A stretch of DNA of 63,869 nt, filler included. It is 13 parts of 13 records of this genome, joined end to end, with 100 filler letters (N's around TTAATTAATTAA, not from the genome) between each part and the next. Parts side by side here need not be neighbours in the genome. Positions count along the whole stretch, not along the records: positions 33,581 to 40,378 come from SRR7504441_17264; 12 more parts are not named here. The stretch is one strand, 5' to 3'. Below are positions 6,446-59,369 of the stretch, piece by piece (within the stretch, counting starts at the first letter, position 1; the number at the start of each line of letters is the position of its first letter). A model generated the notes under the pieces. It ran no database searches. It was given only the letters and a program-made list of their open reading frames with translations, and was not told the origin of the DNA. Position numbers and translations under genes: made by a program.

Positions 6446-6545
6446 NNNNNNNNNNNNNNNNNNNNNNNNNNNNNNNNNNNNNNNNNNNNTTAATTAATTA
6501 ANNNNNNNNNNNNNNNNNNNNNNNNNNNNNNNNNNNNNNNNNNNN
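6446..6545. other. Artificial contig spacer (first of 12)
   Basis: N44-TTAATTAATTAA-N44 (stops in all six frames). Others at 11058-11157, 18060-18159, 22073-22172, 26057-26156, 29873-29972, 33481-33580, 40379-40478, 46018-46117, 50008-50107, 54226-54325, 59270-59369. Confidence 0.99.
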
Positions 6546-11057: not shown

Positions 11058-11157
11058 NNNNNNNNNNNNNNNNNNNNNNNNNNNNNNNNNNNNNNNNNNN
11101 NTTAATTAATTAANNNNNNNNNNNNNNNNNNNNNNNNNNNNNNNNNNNNNNNNNNNN

Positions 11158-16149: not shown

Positions 16150-18059
16150 ATGACGGTGGCCGGCGCGTTCGGCGCACCTCCCTCCAAGCAGCCCAAGGCC
16201 AGTCAGGTGGCCCGCGGCCCGGCAGGTCTCTCACCCGCCGGCAGATGGACATCCCGGACCCCCTCGACCGCATCCTGCAGATCCGGAATATGGCCGACCA
16301 CACGCACAACATCTCCTCCACAGTGCCCATCACGCAGGCGCTGTTCCGCCCCAGCCCCCCCGAGGTTGCCCCCGGCTCTCCCGCCCCGGACTCATTCGGG
16401 CGCAGGTGATGTTCGACAGCTTCGAGCCGCTGCAGCGGTACGAGCAGACCCTCACGTTTAGAAACAACGACTCTGTCGGCCGGCGGCTGCGGGTGGTGCC
16501 CCCCAAGAACAGAGTCTTCTCGGTATCGGCTCCTCAATTCGCCGGTGGCAGCGAAAAGGCCAAAATCGCCCCTGGGATGGAGGTGCGCTCGCGGCCTGCC
16601 CCAGACCAACGCGGCGTCAGGTGTCGTATGTGGTCCGATTTGCGCCGGAGGAGCCGATCGACTACGCGTACGACCTGGAGTTTATCACCGAGCGCGAGCG
16701 TTTCCTGGTCCCTGTGCGAGGGTGGGGTCCACGCCCTCTGCTCCAGTTGCCAGACTCGTACGAGTTCGGGAACGTGGAGGCACGGTACTGCTCGGAGCGG
16801 ACTTTTCTGGCCAGGAATATAGGGAACAAAGCGGCCACAGTCCAGTTCAACGCCACGGAGCCGTTCTCCGTGCTGCCACGACAGATTGGGCTGCCGCCTG
16901 GCGACGCAGTTCAGGTGAGGCTCGGGTGCGAGCCTACGGCGCTCGGGGAGCACAGCGGGGAGCTGCTGGTGGAGTACGGTGCGGGGTCGGTGGTGGTGCC
17001 CCTCTCCGGGTGCGCGTTTGATGCCGAGATCATGACGGATAAGTCTGTCCTAGTGTGTGAGCCGACTTATGTCACACTCACTGCACAAAAGACTTTTAAG
17101 ATTAGGAACCGGTCAGAGGTGAAAGTGCGGTTCGAGCTCAAGGTGAACGCCAACGAGCAGGAGGATGACGACCACAGGCAGGATGAGCTGGCCAGACTAG
17201 AGGATTCTTACGAGCAGGAGCTCGCCGGGTTGACGGCGGCTGATCTCGAGCTTGACGACGAGTCGAGCGAGGACGAGGAGCTCGGGATGACGTTGTCGGG
17301 CGCGGCGCTCGAGCGCAAGTACGAGCGGCTGCGGAAACAGGTGGTGGAGGACCCTCAGCTGTTCACACACGACATCTTCGCGTGTGTGCCTCAGTCTGGG
17401 TTCATATATCCTGGAGGCGAGGCAGAGATTCTTGTGAGCTTCTCGCCGGCGATTGCAGTGGAGTATATAGCCTCAGTCTACTGCTATGTGGAGGGCCGCT
17501 GCACCCGGATACCTGTGCACATTAAGGGCCGCGGGATTGGGCCACGCGTGTGCTTCTCGTATGCGGGGTTGAACCTGGATGATCTCTACCTCAACACCGC
17601 TTACGAATACAAAGCGGAGCTCGAGAACCGAGGCGAGATCGAGGCCCGGTACCAGCTGAATCCTAGCAACAGCAGCTACGGCCAGGCGTTCAGCTTTGAG
17701 CCAGAGACCGGAGTGCTCCAGGTGGGCGAGACTCGCGTGATTAAAGTGTCCGTGCTTTCGCGAGAAGCCGGCCCATTTGGTGAGGACTTCAGTTGGACAA
17801 TACAGGGCTCGCCCAACGACCTGAAGATCCGGTTCCAGGGCCAATTTGTTGGACCGAGTGTTAGCTTTGATGCTGATATGCTCGATTTTGAGAATGTCTC
17901 CTTTGGGTTCATCAACTCAAAGATCTTCAGGCTGTGCAACGCCTCCCCTATTCCAGCCGCTTGGAGCCTGGCTGTGACCCACGACGGGCAGTTGCTCGAC
18001 AAGGAGTGGGACGTGGTGCCTAGCAACGGAGTGCTACTGCCTCATGGCAAGCAGAAAGT
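16150..18059 (+). CDS. HYDIN: Hydin, central-pair axonemal protein (N-terminal part, truncated)
   Basis: LFRPSPPEVMFDSFEP...LTFRNND, IAPGMEVSYVVRFAPEEPIDYAYDLEFITERERFLVPV and tandem ASH/Ig-like domains; introns 16365-16405 and 16583-16620. Confidence 0.9.
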
Positions 18060-18206
18060 NNNNNNNNNNNNNNNNNNNNNNNNNNNNNNNNNNNNNNNNN
18101 NNNTTAATTAATTAANNNNNNNNNNNNNNNNNNNNNNNNNNNNNNNNNNNNNNNNNNNNTCCGGAACAGGTTTCTTATGTGTACGTAGTTCCCTGCGTCT
18201 TAAGCT

Positions 18207-21916: not shown

Positions 21917-22446
21917 CTACCACCGTTGCGTAAACGTGTGGTCGCGTAATATGTAATTGCAAGCAATAATCTATTTTTCTTGGGAACAAGTATCTTGTAG
22001 TTTTGGCCTAGGTATTTTAGGCTTATCTCATTACAGCACAATACATGGTAATGGTAGCGATTTGGGTGGCTGNNNNNNNNNNNNNNNNNNNNNNNNNNNN
22101 NNNNNNNNNNNNNNNNTTAATTAATTAANNNNNNNNNNNNNNNNNNNNNNNNNNNNNNNNNNNNNNNNNNNNCTCAGTATTACAGTAGTATTAAACTATG
22201 GCGTATGTAGGATGAAGGAGGATAGAAGGAGGATATGCACTAAGTCTTGCGAGCAACACCACGCTAAGCCATCTCGTTTGACACACCGAGAACAGGAGCT
22301 GGCTCAAGGTTTGGTCTCGGGAGATGGCATCCCTGACTCGTTCCTGTCAGTAGTGGGCACCTCGCAAGGCCTCAGCACCACGCCGGCGTCAGCATTACGT
22401 CAGCACAGCAAAGAGATGTTATATGTGCCGTTAGGATGCCGGATTG

Positions 22447-25509: not shown

Positions 25510-26517
25510 GGTGTGCTCGTCTGTGGCAGGCGAAGTCCCTTGACCGGCGGGGTATGCTGCCGTCCCCGAGTGAGCTGCTCGTGTGCTATGTCTGGATCCC
25601 CACCCAAGAAGCGCCCAACACTGAGCCGCCCCCCACGGCGGCACCGGTCGAGCAGACCACTATCAGCATGCATTCATCGGTCGATTGATAGTATGCACGG
25701 GCATAATAAACTGTATGCAGCTACATTTATTCGAGTGGTTGAGTCTATGACGCCACATATGACCTACATATAACCCGGTTCGTGCTTAATAAACTATAAA
25801 CTAAACTATCGCACCGGTGTACCCATCGCAAAGGCCAGGCCATTTTTCCGCCGCAGCTACCTGTCAAAAGCCCCCAGGCTGGGGCAGCGCCGCATCCGCC
25901 CCAGTCCCAATCGCGGCCAGGTGCTGCGTACTGCGCTGGCCGGGTGGGGTGCATCCACAGCCGATTCGAGCCAGGCTCACTCACTGTGACCGTCACAACT
26001 CTGCCCCTGAAGGCCAGCCTCTGGTGTCAGATCGCCCCATCTCGGCACCTGCTGGCNNNNNNNNNNNNNNNNNNNNNNNNNNNNNNNNNNNNNNNNNNNN
26101 TTAATTAATTAANNNNNNNNNNNNNNNNNNNNNNNNNNNNNNNNNNNNNNNNNNNNGCGATTAAAGTGTCCTCTCGATTAAAAAAAAGAAGCTTGAGTTA
26201 AGCTAGGTTATATTAATGAGTTAGATATAAGATAGATTTGAAATAAATTTTTTTATACTGATTTAAAAAAAAAAAAATATCATTACAAGTAAATTCAAAT
26301 AAAGGCGAATCACTAGCGATCGTTGCATGCGGTATGCATCTGTACATCAGTGACTCCGTATGAATCGGAGAGCTTTGTGTTCTCGCCTTGCTCCAGTCTC
26401 TCTCTAGTCTACTCCACGAGGGATTGGTGCTCAGACATGCCTCTCGCCCGGACACCCTGCATAAAGGTTATCTCGACCACCACAATTGCGGCCTAACGCA
26501 CAGCAGTCTACTCATAG

Positions 26518-29872: not shown

Positions 29873-29972
29873 NNNNNNNNNNNNNNNNNNNNNNNNNNNN
29901 NNNNNNNNNNNNNNNNTTAATTAATTAANNNNNNNNNNNNNNNNNNNNNNNNNNNNNNNNNNNNNNNNNNNN

Positions 29973-33480: not shown

Positions 33481-33580
33481 NNNNNNNNNNNNNNNNNNNN
33501 NNNNNNNNNNNNNNNNNNNNNNNNTTAATTAATTAANNNNNNNNNNNNNNNNNNNNNNNNNNNNNNNNNNNNNNNNNNNN

Positions 33581-35778
33581 AGTAGGTTGATTGGACTCCG
33601 CCAAACTTGGTGCTGCGAGTCGGCTTGTCAGTCGAGTAATCCTCCGGCATCTTGTCCACACCAGCCCACCTGCATATGCTGAGCAGCTGGCTGGCTCACT
33701 GGGCTCACCACCACGTGTGCTCAGCCACGCAAGGGTACAGGCACCAGATGTCTGTATCATAGGCGACCACTGCAGCCGACGAAGGTGTGTGCGGGATCGT
33801 GCCATGCATGTGCCGCACGGACCACTCGCACCTGTCGGTGTCCAACACATATGCGTAGTCGTATCCTGAGTCAAACGTGCATCCGTCTCCTTTAAACGCC
33901 TTCGACGGCTTGTCTTTTAGCCACCCGCCTGTGAGCCAGATGGATCGACCGACCACCACAGTTTGGAAGTTTGTCATCGGTGGAGGCGGCTTCCCATCCA
34001 CGGGTGGCCTGATCCAATAGCTCCCACCCTGCCTCTTGTGCTTATCTTTGAGCATTGACCACATCTCGTCCATGGGCTCATCCGTCGGCGGGCCTTGGGC
34101 TAACACCTGCAGCCTACATTCAGCCACTAGCGTGGACCGAGCCACCTGGCTGATCCTGAGGCCAGTAGAGAGCAGCCGCACTTGCACCCCGGCCTCAGAC
34201 GACTCGAAAACCCAAATTTCGTCGTCCATGAACACACCGGTGCACTCACCCGGGCCTGGTGCCCCAGGGGCCGCATCCTGCGCTTCGAGCGCGACTTGGC
34301 TCCACTGGCCAAAATCATCTTTCTCTTCGCTCCCCTCTGTCGGCTCGCCAACCAGTAGCGAGATCGCCGTCGTGTCCAGCACCCGGGCGTGCCCCCAGCC
34401 GAGCTCGGGGGACAGCAGCCAGATCTGAGCTCCAATCATCCCCTGCCGCACTCTCAACCTTTTGACTCACATGCGATCCGCACCACTATCACGCTACTCA
34501 GGTCGCACTCGGGCCACAGGCTGTCGCCGGTGTAGTCGAGCGGCCAAGACTCCATGTTGAGCGGGTCGATGCGGAGCAGCTTCTTACACTCCTTGTCTAC
34601 CCCACCGAGCACGTACAACTTGCCCAGCCCGCTCACTGCCTTGGCAGGAGGCGCGTGGGCCACGATCTCGGCATCGGGCGACAGCCGCGGATCCTGCAGC
34701 ACCTGGCGGGTAAAGTGGGCCTGCTCGGTGTCGAAGCAGGTGATGATACGCTCGGTCGGAGTCACTTTGTCCGACGTGTCGAACAGAAGGAAAATCTGCC
34801 GGCCCGGTCAGCGCTGCGACAGCGTGCCAAGCTGCCTTTGGGCCGACATTCACGGCGGCATAGCGGTCCAGCTGGCACCAGCCCTTGGCAAGCAGCACTG
34901 CCGCCTTGTGGTCGGTGGTCTTGGCCGTCGGGGGGGGATTAGTCTGGTTGGTGCTCGGCTCTACCCATTCCGCCACTGCAGCACAGTCTGCCGCCACCCC
35001 TCGCAGCTGCCCCCCGCTCAAGCCAGCTCCATGGCGGTCAGCGCACCCGGCGCCGTTTCAGCGTCAGCGCGCTCTCGGCTTCCTCTTTGGAAATCAGCGG
35101 GTCGGGCGGGGGTGCCTCTTTGACTGGTTTTTCCTCTCCTTCCTCCACTTCCTCTTCCTCCTCCTCCTCCTCTTCCTCGTCGCCCAGATCGTCAGCCATC
35201 CCCTCCATCAAGCTGAACCCGCGGATCCCGTACACTGGGGCCGGCCCGTTTTCGAGCGTGAGCCTGTAATCGTCCAGTCTAATCACCTCCCCCACCATCG
35301 CCGCGCTGTCCATGCCCTCTCCCGTCCGCCCTGCCCACCGCTCGCCCAGCCCCGGATGGCCGGCGCACTGTCGCCCAGGAACGCCTCCTGCGAGAAGTCG
35401 GTTGTATCCCGCAGGAACAGTTTCATGGCCGGAGTCGACACCACCGCCAGCACCTCGTGCCGGCCGTCGGTCACATCCAGGGCCAACCGGTCGCCTGCTG
35501 GCGGCTCAACCGGCCTGATCCAGCAAGGCAGACCGTCGAGCCGACCGGCCTGGATCCTGACCAGCCGCGGGGCGCACTCGGGCCGCTTGCCCTGGCGGAT
35601 CAGAGCCTCCTGTCTCTCCCGCTCGTCCTGTCCAGAGCGTGGGCCGGGCTGGGCCGGGCTGGGACCTGCTCCCCAAGCAGCACGCGGAGCACGTCGTCGC
35701 GGATCCACGGCTCGAAGCTGGTGTCTGGCCCACCCGCTCGGGCCCCAGCAGCCCGGAGCCGCAGCCGGCACCTGCCAT
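33581..35778 (-). CDS. TPP1/Est3-like OB fold + acidic tract + Kelch-repeat protein (3' truncated)
   Basis: Spliced N-terminus FEPWIRDDVL...LDVTDGRHEVLAVVS...GEVIRLDDY...IRGFSL; poly-Glu; Kelch blades GKLYVLGG, GRSIWLTGG...VLDTDRCEWS. Linking introns 35007-35046 (GT-AG) and 34796-34835 (GC-AG). Confidence 0.7.
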
Positions 35779-36210
35779 CGAGGTCTAAATTTACAACCCG
35801 CACTCGACCAGCCTACAGCTGTACGAGTAGCCAGGTACAAAGCCGACTGTCTGTACCTAGTATTGGAGTCCAACATTTAGTCCCGCGGAGATTGTTTGGG
35901 CATGGAAAGCCTGTGCGCGATAGTACCTAAGGTACCCAATCTACCTAAGGGTCCCAGATGAAGGTCGTGAAGGTTTCTAATCGGATTTGTGCCAACTCGG
36001 CCGGCGCTTGAGCAGGCTTGCTGAGCCCGGCCAAGAACCCTCCCAGATCTCCTCCTGGGCCGCCCCCGGCTCTGTCTCCTCGGGCAGCATCCGCTCCTCG
36101 AGTGCGGCCGACACCATCGCCGGCCCGCCCCCTCTCAGGCCCGGCTCAAGAGCCTCGCCCCGAATGTTCTTCCGTTATTCCGACCGGTGCGAAGAGCCAT
36201 CAGTTGGAGG

Positions 36211-37921
36211 ATGTCGACTTTTGTGCCGCTCGAGAGCAAGCCCGACGGCGAGGAGGAGACCGAGCTGGATCCCGGGGTGCCCTCGACTGCCACCCCCCGC
36301 TCCAGGACCGGCAGCCTAGCCGCCGAGCTCCCGACCGCCGGTGCGCCAAGCCGCGGGGTGCCGCCGACGGATGGTTAGAGTTGCCGCCGAGCCGGCTGTG
36401 CATCAAGGCGGCGCTGTGCGCCTCGCTCAACTCGATCCTGCTGGGCTACGATATCGGGATCATCTCGGCGGTGGTGGTGCTCCTAGAAGACGACATGGTG
36501 TGCACCCGGCTCCGGGGAGCTGAGCGGCCGGGGCAGGGCCTGAGCCATATCGAGACCGAAATCTTCGTGGCCTCGCTCAATTTCATCGCCATCCCCGGCG
36601 CGATGATCTCCGGCAAGGTGTCCGACGCCTTCGGGCGGACCCGCACGCTGGCGGCGGCCTCTCTGCTGTTTCTGGTGGGTAATCTGATGATGGCGATCGC
36701 CCCTGGGCTGCTGCTGCTCATGATTGGACGGTCCATCACTGGTGCGGCCGGGCTGGTGGCGCGGTCTGACCCGGGGCAGGACTTGGGGTGGGCTGCGGGC
36801 TATCGATCGACCCACTTTACATCTCGGAGATCTCACCGCCGGCTCACAGGGGTAAAATGGTCACATTCTCGGAGACCTCGATCAACATCGGGATCCTGCT
36901 CGGGTTTATAATCGGTTTCGCGCTGTCCGGGCTGCCGATCGGGCTAGGCTGGAGAGTGATGCTCGCAGTAGGAGGGATAGTGCCTGCGGTGATGGTCTAT
37001 CTCGCGCTGTACGTGATGCCCGAGACTCCGCGCTGGCTGCTCTGCCAGGGGCTGAACGACCGGGCCGAGCAAGTCTTGGATGGGCTGTGCAACACTGAGG
37101 CGGAGAAACTTGCAACGATGGCCGACATAGAGATGAACATCGAGCTGGACATGCAGGCGGCCGCCAAGGGCTGGCGTGCGATCTGCTGCCCGACTCCCGG
37201 GGTCCGGCTGATGCTTGTGGTGGTGATTGGTGTGGCGGTCTCCCAGCAGACCTGTGGGATCGAGGCGCTCATGTACTACTCGCCGGCGATTCTCGAATCA
37301 TCCGGTTTCGAGACTACGTCGGAGCAGCTCGGGATCACGATGGTGATGGGCTTCATCAAGACAGGCGTGATCGTGGCCGCCGCCGCGCTGCTGGATGGGT
37401 ACGGCCGCCGACCGCTGCTGTTGTGGAGTCTGCTAGGGCTAGTGGTGGCTGAGATCATCGAAGGGTTGGGATTCGCTTACGGGCAGGCCTCACTCAATGT
37501 GATCGGACTTTTCCTGTTTGTGATTGCGTTCTCGTTCGGGATCGGCCCGATCTGCTGGCTGTTCAGCGCCGAGATCCTGCCGCTTGAGATCAGGGCGCGC
37601 GGAATGATGCTGGCCTGCAGTCTGAACCGGCTCACTAGTGGGGTTATAGCGGTAAGCTTCTTGTCTGTGGTCGAGGCGATCGGCGAGGCGGCGACCTTCT
37701 TTATGTTCGCGGGGATCACGGCGGTCTCGCTGCTGTTTGTTTATGTGTATGTGCCCGAAACTAAGGGGAGGACGCTCGAGGAGATGGAGGGCTTCTTTGC
37801 CGAGCTGGCGCAGGGCAGTAGCAAGTCACAGAGGCACCAGCTTGTCGATGAGGTCTCCCAACAAGCCGTGGAGCCAGACTTGTCTTTTAGGTCCAGGCCG
37901 GCCCCAGAGCGAAGGGAGTGA
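36211..37921 (+). CDS. MFS sugar porter (polyol/inositol/hexose transporter family)
   Basis: LLGYDIG, SDAFGR, YISEISP, PETPRWL, QQTCGI, DGYGRRP, SAEILP, PETKGRTLEE; three 38-39-nt introns. Confidence 0.95.
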
Positions 37922-38395: not shown

Positions 38396-40288
38396 TCATA
38401 TGAGATTCAAAATATCGTCGAGCGAGGTCTCTTGGTTACACACGCTTGCATCGCTAGGCTCTAGATTGAGGACAAATGAGCCTTGCAAACTCGTATCCAT
38501 ACCGTCCGGGTCTGCACCAAAGTGCGGCTGCTCATCGGGCTCTGTCACAAACAGATCCCCTAAATCGTCCAGCAGATCTGCTGTCGCCACATATTCATCG
38601 GTGCCTTGAGTACTCGTAGCATTCAATTGGTCAAAAATGTCATCCCCAAACATTCCCTCGTCCAACTGGGCCGTCCCATTCACAGCCTGGCTCGAATCCA
38701 TGTACTCTGCAACTGTGGGAGTGGCGCCCATCAACAAATCGTCCTCTTCCTCGTCACTCTCAATGTTAAGCAAATTATCTGGTTCTTCAGCTGGCCCGGA
38801 GTCCTCACTCTCTTCCTCCGGCTCAGCAGGCTCCGACGGCGCCGGCTCATCTTCCGCCTCCTCGAGCTGGTATACTTGCTCCCGCTCGCCCTGGTCCCAC
38901 ACGCTGGACTTGCCCACCGCGAATGCCGTTGTGTGGATTGGGTCGAGCTCGTCGGAGAAGTTCTTCTTGAGCTTGTAATCAATCACCTCCTTGGCGTTCT
39001 TCAGCTGCATCATCAACTTATCCCCGCTATCAAGCCGGTTGTGCAAGTTGTAAACGTCAATCGCAGCCTTCTCAAACGCCGTGCTGCTAGATTTGTGAAA
39101 CAAGTGCGGCCTCTCCTCGACCCATTGCCTGTACATCTGGGATGCCCCAAATGCCCTAATAAAATCATTTGAGCTCCCGGAGTGCGATTCAGCAAACCGC
39201 TCCTCGTCAAATAACGGCAATTTACCCTTGATCCTTCGCATGAACAGCCGATAGCCGCCAAACAGGTCCACAAAGAACTGCAGGAAGCACTTGGCAATCA
39301 TCGGTGAGCTGAATTTGCGTGCTCTTCGGAACCCTCGGATCGTGTCCACCAGTGTTTCCTGCAGCTTAGCAGCAAACCGGCCGGGCAGCTCGATCGTGCA
39401 CGCGTCCAGATTTTCAAACTTCCGGCGGTCGAGGTCCACGAAGACGACTTGCTCGATCGGAAGCTTCTTCACCCGCGGGATGTCTGCTGAGAGAACGCCG
39501 AACAGGAACGGCATCGGGGCGCAGCACATGTCTAGCATCTTGTGTGGCACCACCGGCACGAACAGGTGCTGCCAGAAGAAGGGGAATATGAGCGCGAGCG
39601 AGGCCTGGGTGCACGAAGAGAGCAGCCCCAAGTTGGCGGAGTGCATGATTACCCGGCACTCGCCCAGCAGACATCCGAGCAGCTTTAGCACGTCGCACAC
39701 GTCCAGCTGTCTGAACAGGGGCAGAAAGTCCGGGTCAGAGAAGAGCATGTTGGTGCCCTGCACCCCCTGGGTGCCCCGGTAGCCCTGGTCGTCCGGCCGG
39801 ACAAAGTCGTGCCTCCGGCCGTCGACAGTCACTGTGATGGCCTGCCCCGGCATCGGGAAGGGCTGGAGCACAATGTCTTGGAGCAGAACGCTGATCTGCT
39901 GGGTGCCCCTGGCCCTGTAGAGCAGCAGCACCTCCACGATCTTGGAGAAGAGCGAGAACCAGGGGTACGAGGACACGATCACTACACACTCACGGTACTG
40001 GGCGCCCTGCTTGGCCACTGTATACCGCCTGCACAGCCCGTACTTCTTGCCCCCGAGCGAGTCGGTCATGACGAACGAGTGCGACTGGACCTTGGAGGAG
40101 GTGGCCGGCGCGGCGGCTGCCTGCAGGTCAGCGGCTTCGGGGAAGGCGAACATGGGCGTGTTGTCCGGGGGCCGGTCGCCCTGGGTGGAGAACTGATGGA
40201 CCGGCTGGACCCCAGCCGACGAGTACGAGTAGAGCAGGCAGTGGTCGAACAGTGGTAGCCTGCCGTCCTCCGTGCTGCTCCCTTCCAT
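38396..40288 (-). CDS. DENN-domain Rab GEF (DENND1/2-like)
   Basis: uDENN FAFP/HSFVMTD...YGLCRR, cDENN PFFWQHLFVPV...CAPMPFLFG, dDENN FVDLFGGYR...SQMY; acidic tail with clathrin-box-like LLNIE; intronless. Confidence 0.92.
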   Translation of the reverse strand: MEGSSTEDGRLPLFDHCLLYSYSSAGVQPVHQFSTQGDRPPDNTPMFAFPEAADLQAAAAPATSSKVQSHSFVMTDSLGGKKYGLCRRYTVAKQGAQYRECVVIVSSYPWFSLFSKIVEVLLLYRARGTQQISVLLQDIVLQPFPMPGQAITVTVDGRRHDFVRPDDQGYRGTQGVQGTNMLFSDPDFLPLFRQLDVCDVLKLLGCLLGECRVIMHSANLGLLSSCTQASLALIFPFFWQHLFVPVVPHKMLDMCCAPMPFLFGVLSADIPRVKKLPIEQVVFVDLDRRKFENLDACTIELPGRFAAKLQETLVDTIRGFRRARKFSSPMIAKCFLQFFVDLFGGYRLFMRRIKGKLPLFDEERFAESHSGSSNDFIRAFGASQMYRQWVEERPHLFHKSSSTAFEKAAIDVYNLHNRLDSGDKLMMQLKNAKEVIDYKLKKNFSDELDPIHTTAFAVGKSSVWDQGEREQVYQLEEAEDEPAPSEPAEPEEESEDSGPAEEPDNLLNIESDEEEDDLLMGATPTVAEYMDSSQAVNGTAQLDEGMFGDDIFDQLNATSTQGTDEYVATADLLDDLGDLFVTEPDEQPHFGADPDGMDTSLQGSFVLNLEPSDASVCNQETSLDDILNLI

Positions 40289-40478
40289 GCCGCGCTCACT
40301 GGCCGGCTCACTGCCAATTGGCAGCTTGACCAAGCTGGGGTTTTTGCTGTTGTCTCAGACGGCGCTATCGGGCAGTCTNNNNNNNNNNNNNNNNNNNNNN
40401 NNNNNNNNNNNNNNNNNNNNNNTTAATTAATTAANNNNNNNNNNNNNNNNNNNNNNNNNNNNNNNNNNNNNNNNNNNN

Positions 40479-46017: not shown

Positions 46018-46117
46018 NNNNNNNNNNNNNNNNNNNNNNNNNNNNNNNNNNNNNNNNNNNNTTAATTAATTAANNNNNNNNNNNNNNNNNNNNNNNNNNN
46101 NNNNNNNNNNNNNNNNN

Positions 46118-49462: not shown

Positions 49463-50346
49463 CACTCACCCCGCTGGCAGGATCTGTATCTCATCTCATC
49501 ACCATTCGGCGAAAACTTGGGGGTTCCGGATGGCCATGGAGCATGAGAGGAGCAGCCCGGTCCGAATGCCAGCGCGGCGGGGCTAGCGGCCGTGGCAAGC
49601 GTAACTGGAGTGGTCGGGATACCGCGATCGATCCAGCTCGCCGTCCCTGTGGTCGCGAGGTGTGGCACGCCCGGGCTGCGCTCGCTGACGGCCCCGCAGG
49701 TGCCTCGCTACCCCGGGCCGCTGGGGAGCCTCCGCGCCTCCGCCCTCCGGCCAGATCTAGGCCAGATCCATGCAAATCGATCCTAAATCGATCCGTTGCT
49801 CGGGCCGCTCGGGCCCAATAGAAAGAGGAGCGTGAGCCAGGCCAACCAGCACTGATCACCGCTGTGAGGAGCGTGAGCTCACTTACGAATGCCGCTGCGC
49901 CAAAGCGCACCTTGCCTATGCCAGGAACATTAATTTTATTACTTGTCGTGATTTTATAATAGTAGGCAGTCAATTGGTTAGCTCGCATGACACGCAATTG
50001 TACATCANNNNNNNNNNNNNNNNNNNNNNNNNNNNNNNNNNNNNNNNNNNNTTAATTAATTAANNNNNNNNNNNNNNNNNNNNNNNNNNNNNNNNNNNNN
50101 NNNNNNNTTTTATTTGCTTGTTTTATCAATTGTAAACACTGCCCCGATTTTCGGAATCGATGCATTATACATAGGTGGCGCACCCGCCACCTCAGGGCGC
50201 ATGCACTATGACTCTACTATGACTCACACACATCCAATCATAACAAATATGAATAGACACATTGAAGCGAAGCACGTCGGTGCAAGGTAATAAGTACCAA
50301 TATGTGGCGACCAATGATCAATCAGTGATCAGGTGTAGATCCCGGA

Positions 50347-54225: not shown

Positions 54226-54406
54226 NNNNNNNNNNNNNNNNNNNNNNNNNNNNNNNNNNNNNNNNNNNNTTAATTAATTAANNNNNNNNNNNNNNNNNNN
54301 NNNNNNNNNNNNNNNNNNNNNNNNNAACCTACGTCGTAGTTCTGCGGTTTGAGAGTATAAGCTTACGAGTATATCAATTCAAGCGTTTATAGTTAGTCAA
54401 AGTACA

Positions 54407-59269: not shown

Positions 59270-59369
59270 NNNNNNNNNNNNNNNNNNNNNNNNNNNNNNN
59301 NNNNNNNNNNNNNTTAATTAATTAANNNNNNNNNNNNNNNNNNNNNNNNNNNNNNNNNNNNNNNNNNNN

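Follow-up and report, generated by a model that had tools for sequence, protein, structure and literature searches.

The window analysed here, a stretch of 63,869 nucleotides (positions 1-63869), is made up of 13 short contigs, and the gene with which we are concerned lies on the contig at 33581-40378, where it encodes a protein with an OB-like N-terminal domain joined to a Kelch beta-propeller. The gene is read on the minus strand from 35778 to the contig end at 33582 and consists of nine exons separated by eight introns of 38-47 nt; the spliced product is an open frame of 625 codons, which runs off the contig end. Its parts are collected in Table 1 with the other features of the window.

The OB-like/Kelch gene is spliced, expressed and conserved as one open reading frame

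We found that the gene is real, is spliced and is expressed as poly-A RNA, and that it is conserved as a single open reading frame (ORF). Three of the eight introns (4, 5 and 6) were confirmed by poly-A RNA contigs from two runs. The junction of exons 4 and 5, which had been left open in a first-pass annotation made from the DNA letters alone, reads ...FLGD|RRTGEGMDSAAMVGEV... according to RNA contig X14. At intron 5, the match of a second RNA contig of X10 stops at 35042 and is followed by 16 letters identical to 34986-35001, and this join (35042-35001) means that exactly 40 nt are removed after the KRRR patch. The X10 letters at this intron fit a GT-AG junction only if position 35006 is G instead of C in the strain, which would replace Leu by Val; Val is found at the matching residue in all seven relatives of alignment A1.

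The spliced N-terminal reading given in the first-pass annotation was reproduced by removing introns 1 to 3, all GT-AG, and the poly-Glu tract, the KRRR patch and the 40-nt intron with its in-frame TGA are all present as described, the intron with RNA support. The relatives likewise begin MA.., followed by ..FE.W[IV]R. The gene is not confined to the span first assigned to it, as the ninth exon is cut by the contig end, so that the window copy lacks roughly the last 100 residues, among them a Dpy-30 motif known from relatives; the Dpy-30 piece was not found elsewhere in the window.

It had also been proposed that the OB-like and Kelch parts belong to one gene, with two separate genes as the refuting outcome. 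The spliced 625-aa product is colinear with a relative, P0014, with 53% identity over 658 columns; P0014 (753 aa) is encoded by a single intron-free ORF on a 2.3-kb contig. Because of this colinear identity and the intron-free ORFs of relatives we reject the idea of two separate genes, and the RNA-confirmed splices point the same way. The same fusion was sought in other sequences and was found as single ORFs in L001, L002 and L005, each of which encodes the protein in full, start Met and stop codon included, with no introns, on an mRNA-sized contig of 2.2-2.3 kb.

A further proposal, that retention of intron 5 may yield a second, OB-only isoform, fared less well. The sole RNA contig that crosses intron 5 is spliced, although RNA cover is far too thin to show or exclude retention. 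As seven of the eight introns would lead to a premature stop if retained, with only intron 3 staying open, there is no special basis for an OB-only isoform at this particular intron.

The eight introns form an unusually uniform, tiny and GC-rich class: all measure 38-47 nt, their G+C ranges from 0.56 to 0.83, and most start with GTGC and finish with CAG. Introns 7 and 8 were placed with the help of relatives. The 41-nt form of intron 7 was picked because it restores residues that align with P0014 (...CDFSKAVVGMFGAELW), and two candidates with the donor GTGATA, of 50 or 68 nt, were dropped in its favour. A version of intron 6 with a GT donor after ...DRYA was ruled out by the RNA contig, the real intron being GC-AG.

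Table 1. Features of the window; positions count along the whole window
Feature	Position	Strand	Remarks
Exon 1	35772..35778	-	ATG, GCA and first base of codon 3 (M-A-); no RNA cover
Intron 1	35771-35725	-	47 nt, GT-AG, predicted
Exons 2-5, N-terminal OB-like domain of about 135 aa, up to ...MEGMADDLG	35182..35724	-	spliced reading
Intron 2	35665-35628	-	38 nt, GT-AG
Intron 3	35533-35495	-	39 nt, GT-AG; position common to relatives L006/L007, before RL.L..DGRH
Intron 4	35368-35331	-	38 nt, GT-AG; skipped by RNA contig X14
Poly-Glu tract (DEEEEEEEEEEVEEGEE)	35131..35181	-	part of family-invariant acidic motif
KRRR basic patch	35047..35058	-	end of exon 5; family consensus L-[TS]-x-[KR]-R-[RH]-x-V-R
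Intron 5	35007..35046	-	40 nt, GTGCGC...GGGCAG, phase 0; third codon in-frame TGA (GTG CGC TGA)
Exons 6-8, pre-propeller segment and Kelch beta-propeller	33709..35006	-	Kelch Pfam matches
Intron 6	34835-34796	-	40 nt, GC-AG on gene strand; skipped by poly-A RNA contig X10
Intron 7	34483-34443	-	41 nt, predicted
Intron 8	33708-33670	-	39 nt, predicted; picked for colinearity with relatives
Exon 9, ...WAGVDKMPEDYSTDKPTRSTKFGGVQSTY	33582..33669	-	cut by contig end
Sugar/MFS transporter gene	36200-37921	+	same contig; PF00083, E 3.7e-73
uDENN-DENN domain protein gene	38399-40354	-	same contig; PF02141, E 1.3e-39
Long ORF, HYDIN/CFAP65-type	16462-18057	+	another contig; Ig-like domains (PF22544, E 1e-35; PF24507)
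Linkers, first six	6446-6545, 11058-11157, 18060-18159, 22073-22172, 26057-26156, 29873-29972		N44-TTAATTAATTAA-N44
Linkers, last six	33481-33580, 40379-40478, 46018-46117, 50008-50107, 54226-54325, 59270-59369		N44-TTAATTAATTAA-N44

Family members and their conserved segments

The gene belongs to a small family from uncultured marine protists, to the proteins of which no source gives a name. With the last long exon as query, a full HMMER scan across 1.84 billion representatives returned eight proteins at E <= 0.001, made up of three members of the family and five weak matches of generic Kelch type, while a word-indexed search with P0001 returned seven proteins at E <= 1e-5, every one with precomputed PF24681 (Kelch) and PF05186 (Dpy-30). 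Matches to a profile of the N-terminal domain were confined to the OB-like/Kelch/Dpy-30 family and comprise seven longer proteins (six with Kelch and Dpy-30, and one 302-aa fragment) together with nine short exon fragments. Among metagenome contigs, seven N-domain loci were confirmed out of 340 pattern matches; introns are present in L006, L007 and the window copy. The window product shares 37-46% identity with six longer family proteins and 52% with the 302-aa fragment (P0015), and the seven aligned relatives are 42-83% identical overall.

Pfam assigned PF24681 and PF05186, and these alone, to three full-length relatives. For PF24681, with a cut-off of 50 bits, P0014 (50.5 bits) and P0009 (65.1 bits) lie above the threshold and P0012 (47.4 bits) just under it, whereas the last long exon of the window copy, taken alone, reaches 34.1 bits (E 2.2e-8), which is under the cut-off; the Kelch repeats that had been reported downstream in frame are nevertheless borne out. 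PF05186, with a cut-off of 22 bits, was matched at the extreme C-terminus of the three full-length relatives with 25.4, 36.8 and 49.7 bits, all above the threshold, and lies within the 70-100 aa or so by which relatives extend past the end of the window copy. When the family profile was compared with Protein Data Bank (PDB) sequences, the matches included DPY30 (E 6.8e-10), LZTR1 (E 9.8e-7) and KLHDC2 (E 1.4e-5), with weaker matches to NME5 and AK7 chains of axoneme structures. These profile matches establish the Kelch and Dpy-30 assignments. In the three full-length relatives Pfam recognised neither BTB nor BACK nor a Cul-box family.

Between the N-terminal domain and the propeller lies the tract MEGMADELG.DEEEEEE, which is invariant in all seven aligned relatives (alignment A1, M130-E147) and is followed by a conserved helix-like segment that ends in the basic patch. 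Conservation of the acidic stretch, judged from the alignment, appears to exceed what a mere linker would need. In the window this stretch occupies 35131-35209, corresponding to columns of about 150-175 in A1.

Some members, but not others, carry long insertions within the propeller, Ala/Glu-rich or of other composition (A1 columns 410-550), as seen at residues of about 405-455 and 510-550 in P0014 and about 405-460 in P0012; the second insertion of the P0014 type is also present in the window copy. On the contig of P0001, the start of an N-terminal domain (L004:1-130, ..VWEEWIRKDVLGFFCPGYSPDDPTVV..) lies in a different frame from the remaining ORF, which is probably a frameshift due to assembly error, and P0001 accordingly looks truncated at its N-terminus. 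The dinoflagellate spliced-leader motif was not found on the five mRNA-sized contigs.

Candidate OB fold of the N-terminal domain

The first-pass annotation had described the N-terminal domain as an OB fold of the TPP1/Est3 kind. Sequence profiles gave it no family. Pfam returned none at E <= 10 for any of four N-terminal domains (including PF10341, PF07404 and PF04057) and none at E <= 1 for the N-terminal part of the three full-length relatives; the N-domain profile found no PDB sequence at E <= 10, and translations of single exons gave only chance-level rows for this domain.

Similarity in language-model features and in predicted structure does point to an OB fold. We compared residues 1-138 of P0014 and 1-155 of P0009 with the Atlas by feature search, which returned seven hits to TEBP_beta/TPP1 clusters and 13 to Rep-A_N, all at 0.94 and with 194-201 of 256 features shared; these values need to be interpreted cautiously, as 0.9 is reached by 4-10% of shuffled proteins and the figures are uncalibrated for parts of proteins. 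Weaker rows in the same search were HROB, BRCA2 OB1 and HIN. Two AF2 models were obtained, both of low confidence: model 1, from three alignment rows, has pLDDT 42.8 and pTM 0.34, and model 2, from 22 rows that include exon fragments, has pLDDT 49.0 and pTM 0.44. Both show a helix, three strands, a helix and then more strands. The Foldseek list for model 1 is headed by unrelated rows (TadA/CpaF, Roadblock/Ragulator). For model 2 it consists mostly of OB folds (HIN, Stn1-Ten1, TPP1, Est3, RPA70N) with some non-OB entries (MITF), and no row reaches E <= 0.001. An unbiased VIA-align search of 48,161 chains with model 2 gave OB folds, by title, in nearly all of the best 50 rows.

The same data could be read to mean that the domain is not an OB fold at all, and is instead a lineage-specific alpha/beta domain (Roadblock-like or longin-like, for instance) or a partly disordered region, with the OB look-alikes arising as artefacts of poor models. 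The low confidence of both models and the lack of any profile support for an OB fold would be explained in this way; the Foldseek list for model 1 contains Roadblock/LC7, Ragulator and TRAPP rows with no preference for OB folds, and an order of elements that runs helix, strands, helix, strands, helix is compatible with a number of small alpha/beta folds. We nevertheless regard this explanation as improbable, as two independent kinds of evidence agree on an OB fold, namely the language-model features of two members that are 46% identical and the searches of the better model with two different aligners, and as the Roadblock rows have TM of 0.2-0.3 and E of about 1. An OB fold for the N-terminal domain is therefore moderately supported, and in our judgement likely.

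Within the OB superfamily, structural Z differences are below 1, which is a tie by the tool's own measure, and sub-classes are not distinguishable, with a slight lean to RPA70N over TPP1. The domain is most likely an OB of the protein-binding RPA70N/TPP1/TEBP-beta structural class. The earlier assignment fares accordingly: the OB fold has moderate support from the Atlas and the structural searches, the OB-dominated list of model 2 among them, whereas identity with TPP1 or Est3 in particular finds no match in Pfam or PDB sequences.

Candidate roles and comparison with known systems

Dpy-30 motifs pair into homodimers that hold an amphipathic helix as in a clamp, for example that of ASH2L in COMPASS, and for this reason a dimeric docking adaptor is the most likely role of the protein. 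We lean, with some caution, towards this reading, according to which the protein is one member of a modular family built from an OB-like domain, an acidic, poly-Glu linker with a basic patch, a Kelch propeller and a Dpy-30 motif, the last seen in the relatives. The motif would form the usual four-helix-bundle homodimer, the dimer would dock on a larger assembly by way of an amphipathic helix of the latter, and once docked it would offer its paired OB domains and its paired Kelch propellers as ligand-binding or protein-binding surfaces.

Known docking proteins with this motif include DPY30/Sdc1 of COMPASS and the axonemal proteins RSP2, NME5/RSP23 and AK7. The family resembles them in its C-terminal motif, which in relatives exceeds the Pfam cut-off, and in that its profile matches chains of DPY30, NME5 and AK7 from solved structures of COMPASS and the axoneme; judging by names and lengths, none of them is known to combine the motif with a Kelch propeller or with a domain of OB-like type. 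In radial spokes, the helix AH-D of RSP3 is bound by Dpy-30-domain proteins, as described in a published account (PMC12399478). The long HYDIN/CFAP65-type ORF on another contig of the window (Table 1) suggests an organism that builds cilia or flagella, provided that the bin is coherent, and an axonemal site is hence possible.

Several points tell against the docking-adaptor reading. Besides the low confidence of both models, the unrelated rows obtained with model 1 and the limits of the Atlas values given above, the poly-Glu tract and KRRR-like patch are just as compatible with a protein of the nucleus, the Dpy-30 part of the window gene is taken from relatives because its own exon is absent, and any docking target that is named (axoneme, chromatin or something else) is guessed from what is known of such families.

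A nuclear role is what the protein would have as an RPA70N-like adaptor, in which a peptide-binding OB with a basic cleft would serve DNA replication, repair or chromatin and not the axoneme. The acidic-hydrophobic tail (YMEGMADELG and poly-Glu) could then fill the cleft in cis or act as a mimic of its ligands, and substrate recruitment would fall to the propeller, much as it does in ubiquitin-ligase receptors of the Kelch type. RPA70N (Rep-A_N, PF04057) is similar in size (about 120 aa) and gives the largest number of Atlas look-alikes, and its hairpin motif is resembled by the family's ..RL.L..DG.H...-type motif; titles of fusion structures indicate that it binds acidic amphipathic peptides, and in the family an invariant acidic tail adjoins the N-terminal domain. 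That such a tail might fill an RPA70N-like cleft in cis is an attractive but purely speculative idea. PF04057 gave no match, the weak structural similarity is on a par with that of other OB folds, and what Pfam finds downstream is Kelch and Dpy-30 in place of the RPA DNA-binding OB domains A-C.

In favour of the nuclear reading, Dpy-30 is itself a subunit of a chromatin complex, with COMPASS entries among the PDB matches, and the best PDB matches of the propeller are the ligase receptors LZTR1 and KLHDC2; P0014 and P0009 exceed the cut-off for the KLHDC2/KLHL20/DRC7-type Kelch family (PF24681). The similarity to these receptors is however weak (E 1e-5 to 1e-6), no BTB/BACK or Cul2-box region was found, and the propellers of some members have long acidic or Ala-rich insertions. 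Taking both sides together, we consider an RPA70N-like nuclear adaptor unlikely.

The first-pass annotation had gone further and proposed a shelterin-like subunit. On this explanation the N-terminal domain would be the lineage's own OB of the TPP1/Est3/TEBP-beta type, and the protein a telomerase-recruiting subunit with an unusual C-terminus of Kelch and Dpy-30. TEBP_beta/TPP1 is indeed among the nearest Atlas clusters for both members compared, and a PWIR..VL-type motif at the N-terminus resembles the motif that the annotation quotes for human TPP1. The corresponding families (PF10341, PF07404) were however not matched by any of the four N-terminal domains, TPP1/TEBP-beta/Est3 was never the best match, and the C-terminal architecture is different, with poly-Glu, Kelch and Dpy-30 following the OB domain; neither Kelch nor Dpy-30 is known from the TPP1, Est3 and TEBP-beta proteins described so far. 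The Dpy-30 motif, which had not been foreseen, argues for docking on an amphipathic helix rather than for shelterin. We found no specific link to telomeres, TPP1/Est3 orthology is not demonstrable here, and this explanation is not supported; we judge it very unlikely. Its most elaborate form, in which the family is the missing TPP1/TEBP-beta-type telomerase recruiter of uncultured marine flagellates, dimerized by Dpy-30 and with Kelch in place of the POT1/TIN2-binding tail, would make it a shelterin-like subunit of entirely new architecture and is likewise very unlikely. General Pfam scanning of 25 long ORFs of the window (E <= 1e-5) gave no telomere family.

The protein represents a new domain architecture and a new OB-like sequence family, assembled from known kinds of domain. 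The architecture had been put forward as undescribed, and we too found no description of such a fusion. Literature searches yielded no paper joining a DPY30 domain with Kelch, or TPP1 with an OB fold and Kelch; the combination of Dpy-30, Kelch and OB fold in one protein is not described among the literature matches listed, nor was that of OB-like, Kelch and Dpy-30 seen in named proteins of the collections searched. If the OB assignment is true, a new sequence family joins the OB superfamily, a protein-binding OB of the RPA70N/TPP1 class is combined with a propeller of Kelch type and with a docking motif, Dpy-30, and the family offers a way into a complex so far unknown, in marine protists that are abundant yet uncultured. 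Telomere biology would be concerned only if the improbable TPP1 reading were true, and as it stands the family should not serve as evidence for a protist shelterin subunit.

The setting of the gene was also examined. Features near linkers are truncated, and neighbouring contigs may be non-adjacent in the genome or even come from different organisms. On the same contig the OB-like/Kelch gene is accompanied by the sugar/MFS transporter and uDENN-DENN genes of Table 1, and no functional link between these neighbours and the gene was evident. An Rfam scan of the window returned no RNA families. The G+C of the stretch is 0.60. DNA words of the stretch were found, in small shares that say nothing of habitat past the runs' own 'marine/aquatic metagenome' labels, in 17 public runs from 12 studies labelled as marine, estuary, aquatic, seawater or air metagenomes, and two of the 17 are oligo-dT RNA libraries.

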